Below are positions 21,292 through 62,282 of a stretch of 64,000 bases of DNA, one piece after another. The DNA lies in NCBI GenBank assembly GCA_036867785.1, contig CP145415.1:744001-808000 (forward strand). The letters run 5' to 3'. The notes under the pieces were generated by a model, which saw only the letters and a list, made by a program, of their open reading frames with translations, did no database searches and was not told where the DNA came from. This DNA comes from Plasmodiophora brassicae. Lineage: Eukaryota. Each line of letters begins with the position of its first letter. Positions within the stretch are counted from its first letter, which is position 1. The translations under genes and the position numbers were made by a program.

Positions 21292-22949
21292 TCACATGAA
21301 GTTCTTGATAACGTCAACTTTGACGTCGTTGATCTCCGACTGGGCCTGGAACTTCTTGTACTCTTTCGTATTCGTGAACCTGGCGAACACGTCGTTCTTC
21401 ATGGTGCAGAACGCCTGCCAAACATGACGCATCAGCGACTGCCCGAACGGGGACACCGCTACCCGCAACGGTCGTATACCTCCTTCTGACACTCGTCGAA
21501 TACGACGAACATGGCCCACATATCGTTCCAGATGACGGGGTCGATCTTGGCCTGGGCGGCCGCATTCGTCGCGGGACGCTCCCGCTTAATGAATTCGGCG
21601 TCGTCCCTCTTGTCGTCCAAATCCTGAGTCGTAGCGCCGCTGGCCCACGTCAATCCGCTCGTTGCCGTCCCGTTCAGCTTTGTCTTTGAGGCGGCTGTCG
21701 ATGAGGATACGGAGGCGGCGGATCCTTCCTGCCCGCTGTCGGTCCTCGTATGGCTCTTCTCCCGTTCGTTAATACGCTGGACGACGGCTTGCGCGCACCG
21801 GACGCTTTCGAAGCTGAGGTTCACCTGGAACGGCGAGTCGTCCTTCAGGAACCGGTCGAAGATCGCGTTCATCCGCTGGACGACGTGATGCCTGGCGGAA
21901 CCTGTCAGCGGCCGTTTCGCGTCCAGCATCGCCAGGTACAACTTGTCCTTGTAGTTCGACACGTCCTTCCAGAACACGGCGTTCTCCTGGCACAGCGACG
22001 CCTTGCAGAACGCAGAGAACTGCCGGAACGACTTGGCGTTGCTGAGCACAGCACGTAGTCGGACGGCGCTCTCGTCGTTGTCAACCTCCGCCTCGGTCGT
22101 CCCTGACCCCGTCGAATCGCGATCTTCGCCGTTACCCGCCCCATGTATGACGCTGGCGATCATCAGCATCGACGTGAGCGCGACCGACGACGAACTCGCG
22201 ATGGCAACGTTGGTGCCGTTGGAAGCGATCAGCGGCACGACCGCGAATCGTAGAATGGACTGCTTCAGAGCCAGAACCAGAAGGATACCGATCTCGACGC
22301 CGCGTTCCTGTAGACATCGGGCGAGCAGGGTGATGTAATTCCTGACACCGGTCTGCGCCTTCAAGATGGTGACCGCGGACCAGAGTCTGAAGGCAAGGAC
22401 AATGGAGAAGACGATGGTTTCCTGGAAATCGCCGACGACGGTCAGCGGGTTCATGTCGGTGCTGCCGTTGTTGATGATGGTGGCGACGATGACGACGAGG
22501 TTGTAAATCGTGTACAGGGCGACAATGCCGAGGAGGATCAGGACGGTGCGCATGGGAACAACGCGGCTGTGGATCTCGATGATGACGGGGAGGACGACGA
22601 ACAGGAACGATAGGCACTGCGCCTGGGAGCTGATGTGGAACAGCGAGTCGACGACGATGGACTGTGTGAGCATCAGTAGGCAGGAAACCGCTCCCAGGAA
22701 AGCGAACAACGACATCAGCATGAGGACAAGCGTCGTGACAATACTGGCACGATTGCGGCGGTCTCGTCGCTGAAGGACGCGAAGCAACGGCGACCCGTTG
22801 CTCCTCAAGCTTATCGTCGATGTCGCCATGCCGATACGGTCGTCGGTCGCCCAATCCCGACGCATGCGCCTGGCCCAGACGACGAGCGGGAACACCAGCT
22901 GCATGACGATGGCAAGCGCCATCGTCAGCGCCAGGATCGGCTGCGACAT
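21292..22949 (-). CDS. 7TM-RGS protein (seven hydrophobic helices plus C-terminal RGS domain)
   Basis: Seven hydrophobic segments, then LRAVLSN..FRQFSAFCKASLCQENAVFW..IFDRFLKDDSPFQVNLS..VFDECQKE|AFCTMKNDVFARF; intron ~21415-21479. Confidence 0.88.
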
Positions 22950-23201
22950 GATCTGACGGCAGATATTGCGGCAGAACGGATGAACGCATACACACACGGA
23001 CGCGCGCGCGCGCGCCACGTTAGTATATCTCGGCACCCGCCGCCGCCTGCAAAATTGGCTCAAGTTCATCAATATATCGTGAGCAGCTCCCGGTGAACAC
23101 AGTGGCGCACTGCGTGCAGCTCCGGCGCAACGTCTTCGGATGGGGCCGGTGCACAGCTCCGTTGTATCGCGTGACACGTGTAGGTAGGCAGTGGCGGCGT
23201 C

Positions 23202-57126: not shown

Positions 57127-58310
57127 ATGGCGGCATCGTCGCCGGAGGAAGATGGAATATTGTCGCTCTTCCTCCAGAGCAAGGTCTGAGGCACAACGTG
57201 CCGATGCATGTGTCCCCGACTGCTTAATGTCGCTGGGCCACGACAGGCTTGCGAGCGGATGCTGCTGAGGTTCGCCGAGCGCGAGGTGTCGTTGGAGTCC
57301 GTCTACTTCTGGCGACACGTGACCGCCTATCTCAAAGAGACACAAAGGTGCATCGATTCCGTTGACCCTCACGGTCGTTCTGAAGATGGAAATGCAGTGA
57401 GACGTCGCGGACGCATGCGAACGACATGATTAAGGAGTATATCGAGAAGGGGTCCCGGCACGAGATCAACATCAGCGGATCTTTGCACGATGCCCTGCTT
57501 CGATCGCCAAATGACAGGTCGCTGTGGAAAGAAGCCCAGAGCGAGGTCAGCAAGATGGTCACCGACGGCCAGTTCATGCGCCTGTCCGCGAGAATTACCA
57601 ACCTTGTCAAGTCCAGTTGGGCGGAGGCCATGACGCTGCAGGGTCCCGATGGGATGACACTGCAGAAAGCCTTCTACAATCATATGTTCACGAAATCGCC
57701 CGAGTCGCGCGCGATGTTCAAGGAGGACATGTCGAAACAGGAGCTGATGTTCGGACAGATGATGACCGACGCGGTCAACATTTTGGACAACTTCGAGGAG
57801 CTGGTCGACAAGCTCGTGTACCTGGGCGATGTGCACCGTTACCTGAACCTCGTTCCGGAGCACTTCCGGGTCGTGGGCGAAAGTCTTATTGGGACCCTCG
57901 AAGACGTCCTCGGAAAGGTAGGCGTTTCTTGTCGCGTAGCTGTCGAAGCAATCATGCTGAAAGGCGGGTGTGCGTTCACGCAGAAGAAGTTCAACGCTGA
58001 AGTCAAAGAGGCGTGGGTGATGGTTTACGATTTGATGGCGACCATCATGCTGTTGACGATCAACCCCGAACAAGTATCAGAACTATCAATCGACCTATCT
58101 GGACTTGAAACTGCACGCCCCTGTGATGGCATCCCGATTCAGATCGAAGGATCGCAGACTGCCCGCCCTGATGTGCCGGGGCAAGATCCTCAGCATACAC
58201 ATCGAAGATGGCACTGCTGGAGCCTAAATCGAAATGTCACTGCTGCCATGGCTGCCTTCCTGCTCATCGTTATTGCCATTGTCATCATCATCGTCATTAC
58301 CCGCATGTGA
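57127..58310 (+). CDS. RGS domain-globin fusion protein with C-terminal TM anchor, copy A (334 aa, 4 exons)
   Basis: Exons 57127-57183, 57247-57347, 57398-57917, 57984-58310. RGS: LSLFLQSK..LLRFAEREVSLESVYFW..MIKEYIEKGSRHEINIS..LWKEAQSEVSKMV..FMRL. Globin: LVKSSW..AFYNHMF..PESRAMF..KQ..LGDVH..EHFRVVGESLI..EAW. Confidence 0.9.
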
Positions 58311-58686
58311 TCCACTGTACTGGCGTACTCACAACCCTCAATAAATGGCTGGTCATTGACGGATTATGAAGTCACGATCACGCTTGGTTCTTGGTCCCAT
58401 ATGGGATGCGGTTCTGGGCCGGGCACCGTTTCCAGTTAATAGACTACGCTGCCCTGGCTCAATCGTGTAAGACAGTGCTGTCGCATGCTCAGGAGGCCGC
58501 CCGTGCGGACGCTTATGTGCCCGGCACAGACCGGGCCCCTGGACAAACGTCGCCTCAGGACTTCCCCTGTTACAGTTGTACAACGCCGGCCGATCCGCCG
58601 ATTGCATGGTACCACTTGGTACAGCTAGGCTGGCCTAACGCGTGCCTTCTGAGGTGCACTCCACGCAAGACGCGAACGCTGCCGTG

Positions 58687-59872
58687 ATGGCGCCATCGTC
58701 GCCGGAAGAAGGTGGAATTTTGTCGCTCTTCCTCCAGAGCAAGGTCTGAGGCACAACGTGCCCATGCATGTGTTCCTGGCTGCTTAATGTCGCTGGGTCA
58801 CGACAGGCTTGCGAGCGGATGCTGCTGAGGTTCGCCGAGCGCGAGGTGTCGTTGGAGTCCGTCTACTTCTGGCGACACGTGACCGCCTATCTCAAAGAGA
58901 CACAAAGGTGCACAACGATTTTATCGACTCACAAGGTTACACTGAAGATGGAAATGCAGTAAGGCGTCGCGGACGGATGCGGACGACATGATCAAGGAGT
59001 ATATCGAGGAAGGGTCCAGTCACGAGATCAACATCAGTGGATCATTGCGCGATGCCCTGCTCCGGTCGCCAAATGACAGGTCGCTGTGGAAAGAAGCCCA
59101 GAGTGAGGTCGGCAAGATGGTCACCGGCGGCCAATTCATGCGCCTGTCCGCGAGAGTCACCAAACTCGTCAAGTCCAGTTGGGCGGAGGCCATGACGCTG
59201 CAGGGTCGCGATGGGGTGACACTGCAGAAAGCCTTCTACAATCATATGTTCACGAAAGCACCTGAGTCGCGCGCGTTGTTCAAGGAGGACACGTCTAAGC
59301 AGGAGCTGATGTTCGGGCAGATGATGACGGACGCGGTCAACATTTTGGACAATTTCGAGGAGCTGGTCAACAAGCTCGTGTACCTGGGCGAAGTGCACCG
59401 GTATCTGGACCTCGCCCCGGAGCACTTCCGGGTCGTGGGCGAAAGTCTGATTGGGACCCTTGAAGACATCCTCGGAAAGGTAGGCGTTTCCTGCCGCGTA
59501 GCTGACGAAGCGACCATTCTGAGTGGCGGGTGTGCGTTCACGCAGAAGAGGTTCAACGCTGAAGTCAAAGAGGCGTGGGTGATGGTTTTCGATTTGATGG
59601 CCACCATCATGCTGTTGACGATCGCCCCAGAACAAGTATCACAGATCTCAATCGACGCACCTGGCCGTGCAACTGGGTGCCCCTGCGACGGCGTTCAGAT
59701 TCAGATCGAAGGATCGCAGACTGTCAGCCCTGACGTGCCAGGGCTAGATCCTCAGCATACACATCGAAGATGGCACAGCTGGAGCCTAAGTCGCAATGCC
59801 ACTGCTGCCGTGGCTGTCGTCCTGCTCATCGCCATTGGCATTGTCATCATCATCGTCACTACCCGCATGTGA
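58687..59872 (+). CDS. RGS domain-globin fusion protein with C-terminal TM anchor, copy B (4 exons)
   Basis: Exons 58687-58743, 58807-58907, 58960-59479, 59546-59872; same introns and motifs as copy A; frame intact. Confidence 0.9.
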
Positions 59873-59967: not shown

Positions 59968-60631
59968 TCACGCCTGGTTCTTGGTCCCGAATGGGATGCG
60001 GTCCTGGACCTTGGCGTACTGCGCTTTGATGTACGCCCACAGGTCACCGGCGGCCTTGCGGCACGTCGACACCCATCCGGGCTCCGCTCCCGCTGGAGGA
60101 GCGTCGGACCCGGTCGGCTGCTTGTTCAGCATCGATTTAACAAGCCGAATGTAGTCAGACTCGGCGTCGGCCTTGGGCTTGCCGCTCAGAGCTTTCCAGG
60201 CGTCCCACTTCGCGCGCTCTTTCATGTTCAGGACACTCGGGCGCTCTGGGGACGAATCGGTAAGTTCGACGCGACCGCGGAAGACGTGGGGACCCCGTAC
60301 CAGTGTCACAGTCGCCCATGGTTGCTTGCTTGTAGAGGCCATACAGTTTCAGCTTTGTAGCATCGTCCAGGCTCCCCAGCGTCTTCACGTTATCGGCGGC
60401 ATCATTGAACGCGGCCTATCACTGAATATCAGTTTCTGATGTGATCCCGGCCCGACGTAGGTTCCGGACCGAAAGGCGAATTCTCGGTGTTGGTGTCTTC
60501 CCCGATATCTTGGGCCAGGTAACCGCGACGACAACCGTGGCGATGGCAACAACGACACCGACGACAACAACCGCGATCGCGGCCCAGCGGCGCTTGGATG
60601 CAGAGCGTTGCGACGACGACGACGATAGCAT
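59968..60631 (-). CDS. ACBP: Acyl-CoA-binding protein with N-terminal TM anchor (multi-exon)
   Basis: KLKLYGLYKQATMGDC, ERAKWDAWKALSG..AESDYIRLV; upstream exon WAAIAVVVVGVVVAIATVVVAVTW. Confidence 0.9.
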
Positions 60632-60677
60632 GACGACTGGGACTCACGTGGGCACACCGAATAAAATCTGGCGAGGA

Positions 60678-60705: not shown

Positions 60706-61358
60706 ATTCGGACCACCGACACCAACCGGGGCCATGGCGTCGCATCGCGCGGTCCGCCACGGGATGACGACGATGTACCCGGGGCGCCTGAAATGGACCC
60801 GCCGCACGTCCCCAGGTGCGAATGCGATCCCCCGCCAACTGAGCCGATTTGGTTCGGCTCACTTGGCGGCGTACGCAGCGGGGCCGGGTGAACAGTGCGG
60901 CGGCGCTCGAGCAACGCCTGGAACGATCTCGTTGATCGTTTCGATAAGTCCCTGCGAAACAACCTATTCTGGTCGCATTCCAGTCCAAAGCTATGGCCGC
61001 CAAGAATGCAGACATCGAGGACACCTTGGTCGTGGCCATAATACTGTATGATCTGTCTGCCGAGTATCCAGAGGTTGTTATAATTGCGCTCGACACCGCC
61101 GACAAGGTTGACTGTCACAAATCAGCGTCTTGATACCTCTGCAGCCAGGTTGCACAGTATGATGGCCGCAATTAAGCTTCCTCGAATGTTGAGGCCTGCA
61201 TTCGGGTTGGCGCTCTGACATATTTTATAAAACATAATGCCTGGTTTAGAGTGACGATGCACTCAGGAATAATGTTTTGGGTGTTGAGTGGAACAATGCC
61301 CGCCTGGTAGGCTGGTACCTGACGTTCAGGCGTACACGGGCCGGCCAGCAGCCCCACA

Positions 61359-62282
61359 ATGACAGATGCCGCGGCGGAGTGCGCAGCGAGCGCTCAGGAA
61401 CCACAGCTGGAACGTGTCGTGTTAGTTCACGTTGATCGATTGTCACCGCCATTAATCGATGTCGTTGTTGTCGACGTCGTCGCCCGGAATATCAGCCAAA
61501 TTCTCGACCTGTTGGGGTCGCTGTCCCTGACGACGTTGCCGCGCTTATCGCATCTGGGCCGCGTCAAACGCGACAGAGGATCGCCGACGGCACGAATTCT
61601 CATCTGCGATGATGGTCACTTCTCAACACTCGACGAAACCTGTAGAACAAGGATACTGCAGTATGGTGCACATTTCATCGTACAAGTCCCGTCGTGTCCA
61701 CCCATGTCGCATGTTGAACACCAAACTTGGCGTAAAATCTGGCCGTTGTCCTCGCGTGCTCAACCTCCTCGACATAATCCTATCGATCCGCTGACGTCCT
61801 CTACTCGAGTTCGAATCATTGAGCTCGTGGAAGGCCTTCCTCGGGGCGATCTGATTGCTGCGTCACTTGTCGACGATGACGGCGTCGTGGTCGGCCAAGC
61901 AGTACAACGGGTTGGTAATCAACCGAATCCACTGGATCATGCGGTTATCCGAGTTATCGATGTGGTCGCTCGTGCCAACTGCGATAAATCGATTGCCAGC
62001 AAAGGATCGTGGTCCCAAGACCCCTATTTGTGTCGCGGGTTAGACTTGCTCGTTACACATGAGCCGTGTGCCATGTGTACGATGGCAGCCCTGCATTCTC
62101 GTATCGGCCGACTCGTTTACATCCGACCTGTGAAGAGATATGGCGCTTGTGGGTCCCAGTTCTACATTCACTGCGACTCCAGGTTGAACCATCGGTTTGA
62201 TGCCTATCGATTCGTCAGTCCAGCAATCGATGAGGACGATTACGCCCTCGCTCCTGACGGCTGCAGATCTGCCAAACAGTAA
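61359..62282 (+). CDS. TAD3: tRNA adenosine-34 deaminase regulatory subunit Tad3/ADAT3
   Basis: HLGRVKR, WP motif, PLDHAV (V replaces catalytic E), YLC..HEPCAMCTMAALHSRI, LNHRF. Confidence 0.92.
   Translation: MTDAAAECAASAQEPQLERVVLVHVDRLSPPLIDVVVVDVVARNISQILDLLGSLSLTTLPRLSHLGRVKRDRGSPTARILICDDGHFSTLDETCRTRILQYGAHFIVQVPSCPPMSHVEHQTWRKIWPLSSRAQPPRHNPIDPLTSSTRVRIIELVEGLPRGDLIAASLVDDDGVVVGQAVQRVGNQPNPLDHAVIRVIDVVARANCDKSIASKGSWSQDPYLCRGLDLLVTHEPCAMCTMAALHSRIGRLVYIRPVKRYGACGSQFYIHCDSRLNHRFDAYRFVSPAIDEDDYALAPDGCRSAKQ

Follow-up and report, generated by a model that had tools for sequence, protein, structure and literature searches.

A spliced RGS-globin gene with a likely tail anchor in Plasmodiophora brassicae, a candidate haem-tuned regulator of G-alpha

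Introduction

Could the haem state of a globin tune the shut-off of a G protein from within one polypeptide chain? The question is raised by a locus of the clubroot parasite Plasmodiophora brassicae, at positions 57127-59872 of the 64,000-nucleotide stretch of contig CP145415.1 analysed here (the window). The initial annotation, made from the sequence alone, described one gene joining an RGS domain to a globin and a C-terminal hydrophobic helix, and suggested a gas-sensing GTPase-activating protein (GAP) for G-alpha. To our knowledge, it is poorly known how oxygen or nitric oxide (NO) enters signalling in protists that lack animal-type hypoxia pathways. According to a clubroot review, an inhibitor of the G-protein-coupled receptor pathway lowered symptoms, and a hypoxia response is seen in infected roots (PMC9180986); the two observations would be connected if the parasite indeed couples an oxygen sensor to its G proteins. 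We find that the fusion with its C-terminal helix is real, and the gene is a spliced member of an RGS-globin family that has been listed in print but apparently not studied.

Results and Discussion

Two tandem genes and the splicing of copy 1

Two tandem genes lie on the plus strand of the span; each encodes 334 residues in four exons, separated by three short GT-AG introns. Copy 1 (57127..58310) comprises exons 57127-57183, 57247-57347, 57398-57917 and 57984-58310; removal of the introns at 57184-57246, 57348-57397 and 57918-57983 gives the open 334-residue frame that had been proposed. Copy 2 (58687..59872; exons 58687-58743, 58807-58907, 58960-59479 and 59546-59872), absent from the initial description, is complete and 86% identical to copy 1 in amino acids. 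Since many intron choices leave the frame open, the gene model needed outside support, and three sources provided it: spliced contigs, a paralogue on contig C6 and public 334-residue models.

The splice evidence comes from contigs of four public runs of four studies (X1, X2, X4 and X8), selected using copy 1. The runs carry no RNA annotation and their RNA nature was guessed; they are RNA-like in that their contigs show spliced joints. These joints, read with a cut of +2, skip 63, 50 and 66 bases, which are exactly the copy 1 introns. Within copy 1, the intron 1 joint is seen in one of the four runs (X8); in X2 and X4 it maps to exon 2 of copy 2, which is identical. The joint of intron 2 falls within copy 1 in three of four runs, X4 again passing through exon 2 of copy 2, and that of intron 3 in all four, for which reason we rejected a read-through of intron 3 despite its intact frame. 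A single X8 contig holds all four copy 1 exons and ends at 58352, past the stop codon, and the copy 1 contigs terminate at 58352-58367, downstream of the stop. The RGS/globin junction lies inside exon 3, so the fusion itself is independent of splicing. One X1 contig (window 56900-57345) starts upstream of copy 1, keeps intron 1 and splices introns 2 and 3, possibly through intron retention or read-through from an upstream gene. Copy 2 alone is covered by one short contig (X1, 59559-59775) in the four runs, which says nothing about its expression because the runs were chosen with copy 1.

The public P. brassicae models P0151 and P0152 (334 residues) match copies 2 and 1 at 326/334 and 319/334 positions, respectively. 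We also considered a single gene of 644 residues with a double RGS-globin, as in the public model P0001, and rejected it: copy 1 has its own stop, the contigs end just past it, and separate 334-residue models exist. P0001 (644 residues) consists of copy 1 residues 1-329 followed by copy 2 residues 20-334, skips the copy 1 stop and is a mis-fusion; P0153 (658 residues) likewise merges the tandem copies.

The third paralogue, on the minus strand of C6 (G000:C6:1310103-1310618; L003 2234-997), is 46% identical over exon 3. A hand-built gene model gives 357 residues with a hydrophobic tail. Intron 1 is missing from it, the sequence running collinear through the site; introns 2 and 3 are common to this gene and the window copies, phase included, and a further intron is present. 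Between copies 1 and 2, the ratio of nonsynonymous to synonymous substitutions by simple codon counting is 0.27 for the RGS domain and 0.25 for the globin, so that purifying selection acts on both. A 114-base stretch spanning the whole of exon 2 is identical in the two (57239-57352 versus 58799-58912), compared with 73% identity in intron 2 and 88-92% in exons 3-4, possibly the result of local gene conversion around exon 2.

Two domains, a shared helix and a membrane anchor

Pfam detects both domains on the spliced proteins P0151 and P0152: RGS (PF00615) at 40.2-40.3 bits against a cut-off of 23.9, over positions 6-105 of the 117-position profile, and Globin (PF00042) at 46.2-50.9 bits against a cut-off of 22 (P0152, 40.3 and 50.9 bits). 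The fusion is easy to miss because exon 3 onward alone scores just 17-18.7 bits for RGS, below the cut-off, which bears out the earlier remark that the split RGS domain hides it. In copy 1 the RGS domain (residues 16-112; 57172..57575) extends over exons 1-3 and is supported by Pfam, by an alignment to RGS1/6/7/8 and by a structural match to RGS4. The globin (about residues 118-254; 57591..58067) is interrupted by intron 3.

We modelled the window protein with AlphaFold2 (mean pLDDT 76, pTM 0.65). The modelled RGS domain superimposes on RGS4 (1agr_H) with a template-modelling (TM) score of 0.80 by target and a root mean square deviation (rmsd) of 1.7 Å over 105 columns, and the globin on Hell's Gate globin I with a TM score of 0.86 by target and an rmsd of 2.1 Å, so that both predicted folds match solved structures. 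No chain of the PDB covering both domains appeared among the matches listed.

The initial annotation placed the RGS domain almost without a linker against the globin, and the models agree. A single predicted helix (residues 111-132; 57570..57635) comprises the last RGS helix, with Arg114, and helix A of the globin, with Trp127; it starts at the third G-alpha contact patch (Met106/Gly110/Arg114). In the model of the ichthyosporean relative P0093 an unbroken helix, 172-208, likewise spans the junction. The distance from the residue at the RGS Arg167 site to the tryptophan of globin helix A is 13 residues in all 43 RGS-globin modules compared, a count that carries ascertainment bias because the query defining the family itself holds the junction. 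The models thus support the shared helix as a structural route by which the two domains may be coupled.

The globin is followed by a low-confidence spacer (about residues 260-309) and a hydrophobic helix (residues 310-333; 58233..58304), on which the model and the hydropathy scan agree, as did the original description. It is the one strongly hydrophobic stretch, with peak 19-residue hydropathies of 3.4 and 3.25 in the two copies; a weak second peak of copy 2 (1.86) falls within globin helix H. A lone hydrophobic helix at the extreme C-terminus, with none at the N-terminus, is likely a tail anchor, which would leave the N-terminus and both the RGS domain and the globin in the cytosol.

An RGS-globin family listed but apparently not studied

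De Mendoza et al. (2014; PMC3971589) include both /RGS//Globin/ and /Bactofilin//RGS//Globin/ among the RGS architectures shown in their supplementary figures. The window protein, with Pfam RGS followed by Pfam Globin, has the first of these. The domain order is the same, and the relatives recovered here include ichthyosporeans that this study had sampled (Pirum and Abeoforma) and bactofilin-RGS-globin proteins. In that source the architectures are two heat-map labels without discussion, and the word "globin" occurs 0 times in the main text as available; the tail anchor, the shared helix, the residue signatures and the plasmodiophorid copies are features added here relative to the parts of it at hand. 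The sections on chimeric globins in a globin review omit RGS-globins (PMC7475203), and no study of such a fusion was found in the literature searched, in which subscription journals were thinly covered. The initial annotation had named a prior description of the architecture as a ground for refutation, and the printed listing partly supplies one.

A HMMER search with exon 3 against 1.84 billion representatives returned 945 matches, and the family was drawn from the best 150 of these 945. Thirty relatives, picked mostly for a match reaching into the RGS part, were scored with Pfam, and 21 of them, P0001 included, pass both the RGS and the Globin cut-offs. By custom profiles, 32 of 163 proteins carry both domains, counting cluster mates and models from the same species. 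Word-index protein searches missed the family that HMMER recovered (0 of 1194 candidates passed for the long open reading frame, and 2 of 8000 for alignment A2), and the ESM Atlas gave no usable match. Named members come from Leptophrys vorax, Paulinella micropora, Chrysoparadoxa australica, Pirum gemmata and Abeoforma whisleri, which we take to belong to Rhizaria, stramenopiles and Ichthyosporea; most others are environmental. The family thus extends across three eukaryotic supergroups and offers natural variants with His or Gln at E7, an intact or decayed RGS domain, and a helix or CaaX anchor.

Three forms of the family are found: a single module with a hydrophobic tail, a tandem (RGS-globin)2 ending in CaaX, and bactofilin-RGS-globin (P0042 and P0108). 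Membrane anchoring recurs in the family, either through a C-terminal helix or through a CaaX terminus. In the tandem proteins with a CaaX end (P0016, P0021, P0027, P0056, P0100 and P0282), the second RGS domain lacks the G-alpha contacts, and its globin mostly keeps His F8.

In a tree of 154 globins (126 columns), 29 of 30 fusion globins group together at an unstarred node (Shimodaira-Hasegawa-like approximate likelihood ratio test, 92), and a constraint uniting all 30 was not rejected by the approximately unbiased test (p-AU 0.83). The RGS tree requires four label changes, with weak deep support. A single origin of the family is possible on these trees. The window protein belongs, in the RGS tree, to a starred clade of nine rows that also contains Paulinella and environmental proteins, and 29 other RGS domains from the same genome fall outside it.

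A proposed haem-tuned regulator and the globin pocket

We propose that the protein is a tail-anchored, haem-state-tuned regulator of G-alpha, the likeliest of the readings considered, which we regard as evenly poised. The RGS domain and a haem-binding globin would face the cytosol. A change of haem state, through O2, NO or redox, would shift the shared helix, whose first turns hold the third G-alpha contact patch; alternatively, the globin itself might touch G-alpha. The engagement of the RGS domain with a subset of the many G-alphas of the parasite would thereby be tuned, as a GAP or a weak GAP, and G-alpha shut-off could be adjusted independently of receptors. A bolder version, which we hold only tentatively and which may well be too broad, takes RGS-globins to be an old eukaryotic family, widely scattered, whose members sense gas or redox state as one-component systems and let the haem gate G-alpha shut-off allosterically along the shared helix. 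Met E10 would then be a possible switchable distal ligand, and the clubroot proteins would report low oxygen in soil or gall to G-protein signalling. A link from gas to G protein is directly testable, since the soluble part is small (about 250 residues), haem gives an optical read-out and GAP activity has a standard assay.

The Pfam match, the globin fold, Phe CD1 and His F8 identify a 3/3 globin of the F-family type. In copy 1 the pocket residues are Tyr146 (B10), Phe160 (CD1), Gln167 (E7), Met170 (E10), His199 (F8) and Phe209 (G5); the alignment recovers all four that had been named at the outset (B10, CD1, E7 and F8). In the alignment with Hell's Gate globin, Tyr146 corresponds to Tyr29 (B10) and Gln167 to Gln50 (E7), two residues that hydrogen-bond the ligand there (PMC11203436). 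All three genes of the genome retain B10, CD1, E7 and F8. Among the 30 fusion globins 27 keep His F8, and 14 have His and 12 Gln at E7; Phe CD1 is present in all 43 modules. From these residues we infer that RGS-globins bind haem. An RGS domain that is constitutively active beside a haem-free, purely structural globin would fit the loss of His F8 in 3 of the 30, but the conservation of the pocket across the family and in all three genes of this genome makes it highly improbable.

Two positions set the fusion globins apart from the 124 non-fusion globins of the same search. Met E10 occurs in 27 of 30 fusion globins versus 7 of 124 others, in which Lys predominates (82 of 124), and G5 is Phe in 25 of 30, compared with Tyr in 103 of 124. 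Lys E10 of Hell's Gate globin is a proposed sixth ligand of the haem (PMC11203436), and by analogy we speculate that Met E10 could be a switchable distal (sixth) ligand.

Lys E10 and Tyr G5 have roles in NO dioxygenases. The protein could itself be an NO dioxygenase or an O2 buffer at the membrane beside G proteins, its domains working independently. Such a role would suit the Tyr B10/Gln E7 pocket and the nearest solved relatives, namely Hell's Gate globin, flavohaemoglobins and Vitreoscilla haemoglobin. It would also suit the general reactivity of single-domain oxy-globins with NO (PMC3820574) and the finding that copies 1 and 2 and the C6 paralogue account for all three PF00042 matches of the genome. 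However, Pfam finds no FAD/NAD reductase domain, the C-terminus being a spacer and a hydrophobic helix, and the Lys E10 and Tyr G5 of other globins are replaced; together these points lead away from a flavohaemoglobin-type NO dioxygenase. Independent domains would also need no linker-free junction fixed across distant lineages, and we consider this role clearly unlikely.

The PF00042 count does not make the three genes the only globins of the genome, an idea we rejected because two Protoglobin-type (PF11563) matches lie on C19. These belong to two adjoining S-family genes (G000:C19:487332-488612, minus strand; L067/L068), at least one apparently with a C-terminal hydrophobic helix. A PF01152 profile search of the genome gave no match, which is weak as proof of absence.

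The globin might instead sense an input other than gas (lipid, fatty acid or pH) or contact G-alpha itself, as neuroglobin does. Hell's Gate globin, the closest solved homologue, alters its haem coordination on lipid binding (PMC11203436), ferric neuroglobin is a guanine nucleotide dissociation inhibitor for G-alpha-i (PMC4842972), and the window protein appears tethered to a membrane. Adjacency is all that ties an acyl-CoA-binding gene to the locus, and we judge this alternative improbable.

The RGS surface and its G-alpha partners

Three RGS4 residues are described as making critical contacts: Asn128 with the catalytic Gln, and both Asn88 and Asp163 with Thr182 of switch I (PMC8252600). We located these sites by alignment to RGS1/6/7/8, with a numbering of the aligned motifs that we take to be that of RGS4. 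The initial annotation pointed to an EINIS motif retaining the key Asn, and Asn77 (57468-57470) indeed occupies the Asn128 site in copies 1, 2 and C6. Its complete N-terminal RGS domain holds for the fold, by Pfam and by comparison with RGS4, but not for the catalytic residues. Ser37 (57298-57300) replaces Asn88 and Gly110 (57567-57569) replaces Asp163 in the window copies, so that one of three catalytic contacts is kept and the implied intact GAP surface does not hold.

Several points count against the proposed haem-tuned regulator, beginning with these two replacements. RGS4 N88S reportedly does not stimulate GTPase activity (PMC3688948), and with Ser37 at this site the case for GAP activity made initially is weakened. 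The C6 paralogue is more degenerate still, with Arg at the Asn88 site and Glu at the Arg167 site, and across the family Asn88 is kept in just 14 of 25 first or single modules (2 gaps). P0093, P0108 and P0030, from free-living relatives, have this Asn in place. The structure models were built on 17-18 sequences (pTM 0.65 and 0.68), and the ascertainment bias in the junction spacing, noted above, also belongs here. Helix A lies far from the iron in globins, so coupling between the RGS domain and the globin may be weak. On the partner side, 15 of 21 readable switch I motifs keep Thr182, and for plants a simulation described in PMC11061236 gave no support for a proposed compensating pair.

The same residues bear on a further explanation, in which the RGS domain is a pseudo-GAP that binds activated G-alpha without catalysis, as effector, decoy or scaffold, or else plays a structural or inhibitory part; sensing of a ligand would fall to the globin. 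The Ser and Gly replacements and the decayed C6 surface would follow naturally. RGS4 N88S is used as a dominant negative (PMC3688948), other RGS domains have lost GAP activity and turned into scaffolds (PMC3971589), and the RGS domain of BcLOV4 inhibits membrane binding in the dark (PMC6099885). Yet the Glu83, Glu87, Asn128 and Arg167 sites are all retained in both window copies, unlike in the second RGS domains of the tandem relatives, and the same Ser stands at the Asn88 site in 9 of 30 other RGS loci of the genome. We find the pseudo-GAP rather unlikely.

The residue tally covers 32 modules, that is 43 minus 11 near-duplicates, of which 25 are first or single and 7 are second modules. Of the first or single modules, 22 keep the Asn128 site and 18 the Arg167 site; in second modules of tandem forms both Asn128 and Asn88 are kept in 0 of 7. 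Contact sites kept in first modules and lost in second ones imply that the first RGS domain of the family is under constraint, and the second domains may serve as an internal control for a relaxed RGS. Twenty of the 25 first or single modules carry Gly at the Asp163 site, so Gly110, where the shared helix begins, is typical of the family and no lesion of the window gene. Ser37 is specific within the family to the lineage of the window protein.

The genome holds at least 82 RGS matches and at least 85 G-alpha exon matches. Thirty of the 82 RGS matches make up the loci examined for Ser at the Asn88 site; 25 of these had a residue there, and those with Ser lie on a separate branch. Twenty fetched G-alpha regions yielded 21 readable switch I motifs, three regions giving no clear read, and the Thr182 site is changed in 6 of the 21, to Val, Ile (twice), Ala, Ser and Asn (L059, L061, L062 and L066). 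Ser at the Asn88 site elsewhere in the genome, together with G-alphas lacking Thr182, makes it possible that some partners are co-adapted to the altered RGS surface. One G-alpha (L049, G000:C4:1442500-1443900) carries Arg in place of the catalytic Gln of switch II and is possibly GTPase-deficient.

Comparison with known sensors and RGS proteins

RGS-LOV proteins of fungi such as BcLOV4 also combine an N-terminal RGS domain with a cofactor-bearing sensor domain, for which receptor-independent control of G proteins has been proposed; they use flavin, light and switchable membrane binding (PMC6099885), whereas the window protein has a haem-type globin joined to the RGS domain without a linker, and its anchor is fixed. 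Globin-coupled sensors (HemAT, S family) likewise unite a globin and a signalling domain in one chain, with an N-terminal S-family globin and a C-terminal output (PMC7475203). Here the RGS domain, a eukaryotic output, precedes a C-terminal F-family-like globin, and P0151 and P0152 gave no Protoglobin match at an E-value of 0.05. The receptor-GAPs with seven transmembrane helices (AtRGS1, Naegleria) are also membrane-bound RGS proteins, with a fused input module that is considered to set their activity (PMC9283941); the window protein has one C-terminal helix instead of seven, and its input would come from inside the cell.

Hell's Gate globin I, Vitreoscilla haemoglobin and the flavohaemoglobins share the fold (TM 0.86) and the Tyr B10/Gln E7/His F8 pocket, but the window globin has no reductase, carries Met E10, Phe E11 and Phe G5, and is fused to an RGS domain. 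In neuroglobin the redox state of the haem bears on G-alpha, the ferric form binding G-alpha-i; unlike the fusion, it is a free globin without RGS domain and binds GDP-G-alpha in trans (PMC4842972). RGS-LOV and ferric neuroglobin may thus be taken, by analogy, as precedents for an RGS domain tuned by haem.

Neighbouring genes

A further RGS gene of the window (21459-23201, minus strand; 40.3 bits) has several hydrophobic stretches N-terminal to the RGS domain and looks like a multi-pass transmembrane RGS protein. The genes adjoining the tandem pair encode the acyl-CoA-binding protein, with an N-terminal hydrophobic stretch (59968-60643, minus strand), and a member of the cytidine/adenosine deaminase family (61323-62282, plus strand).

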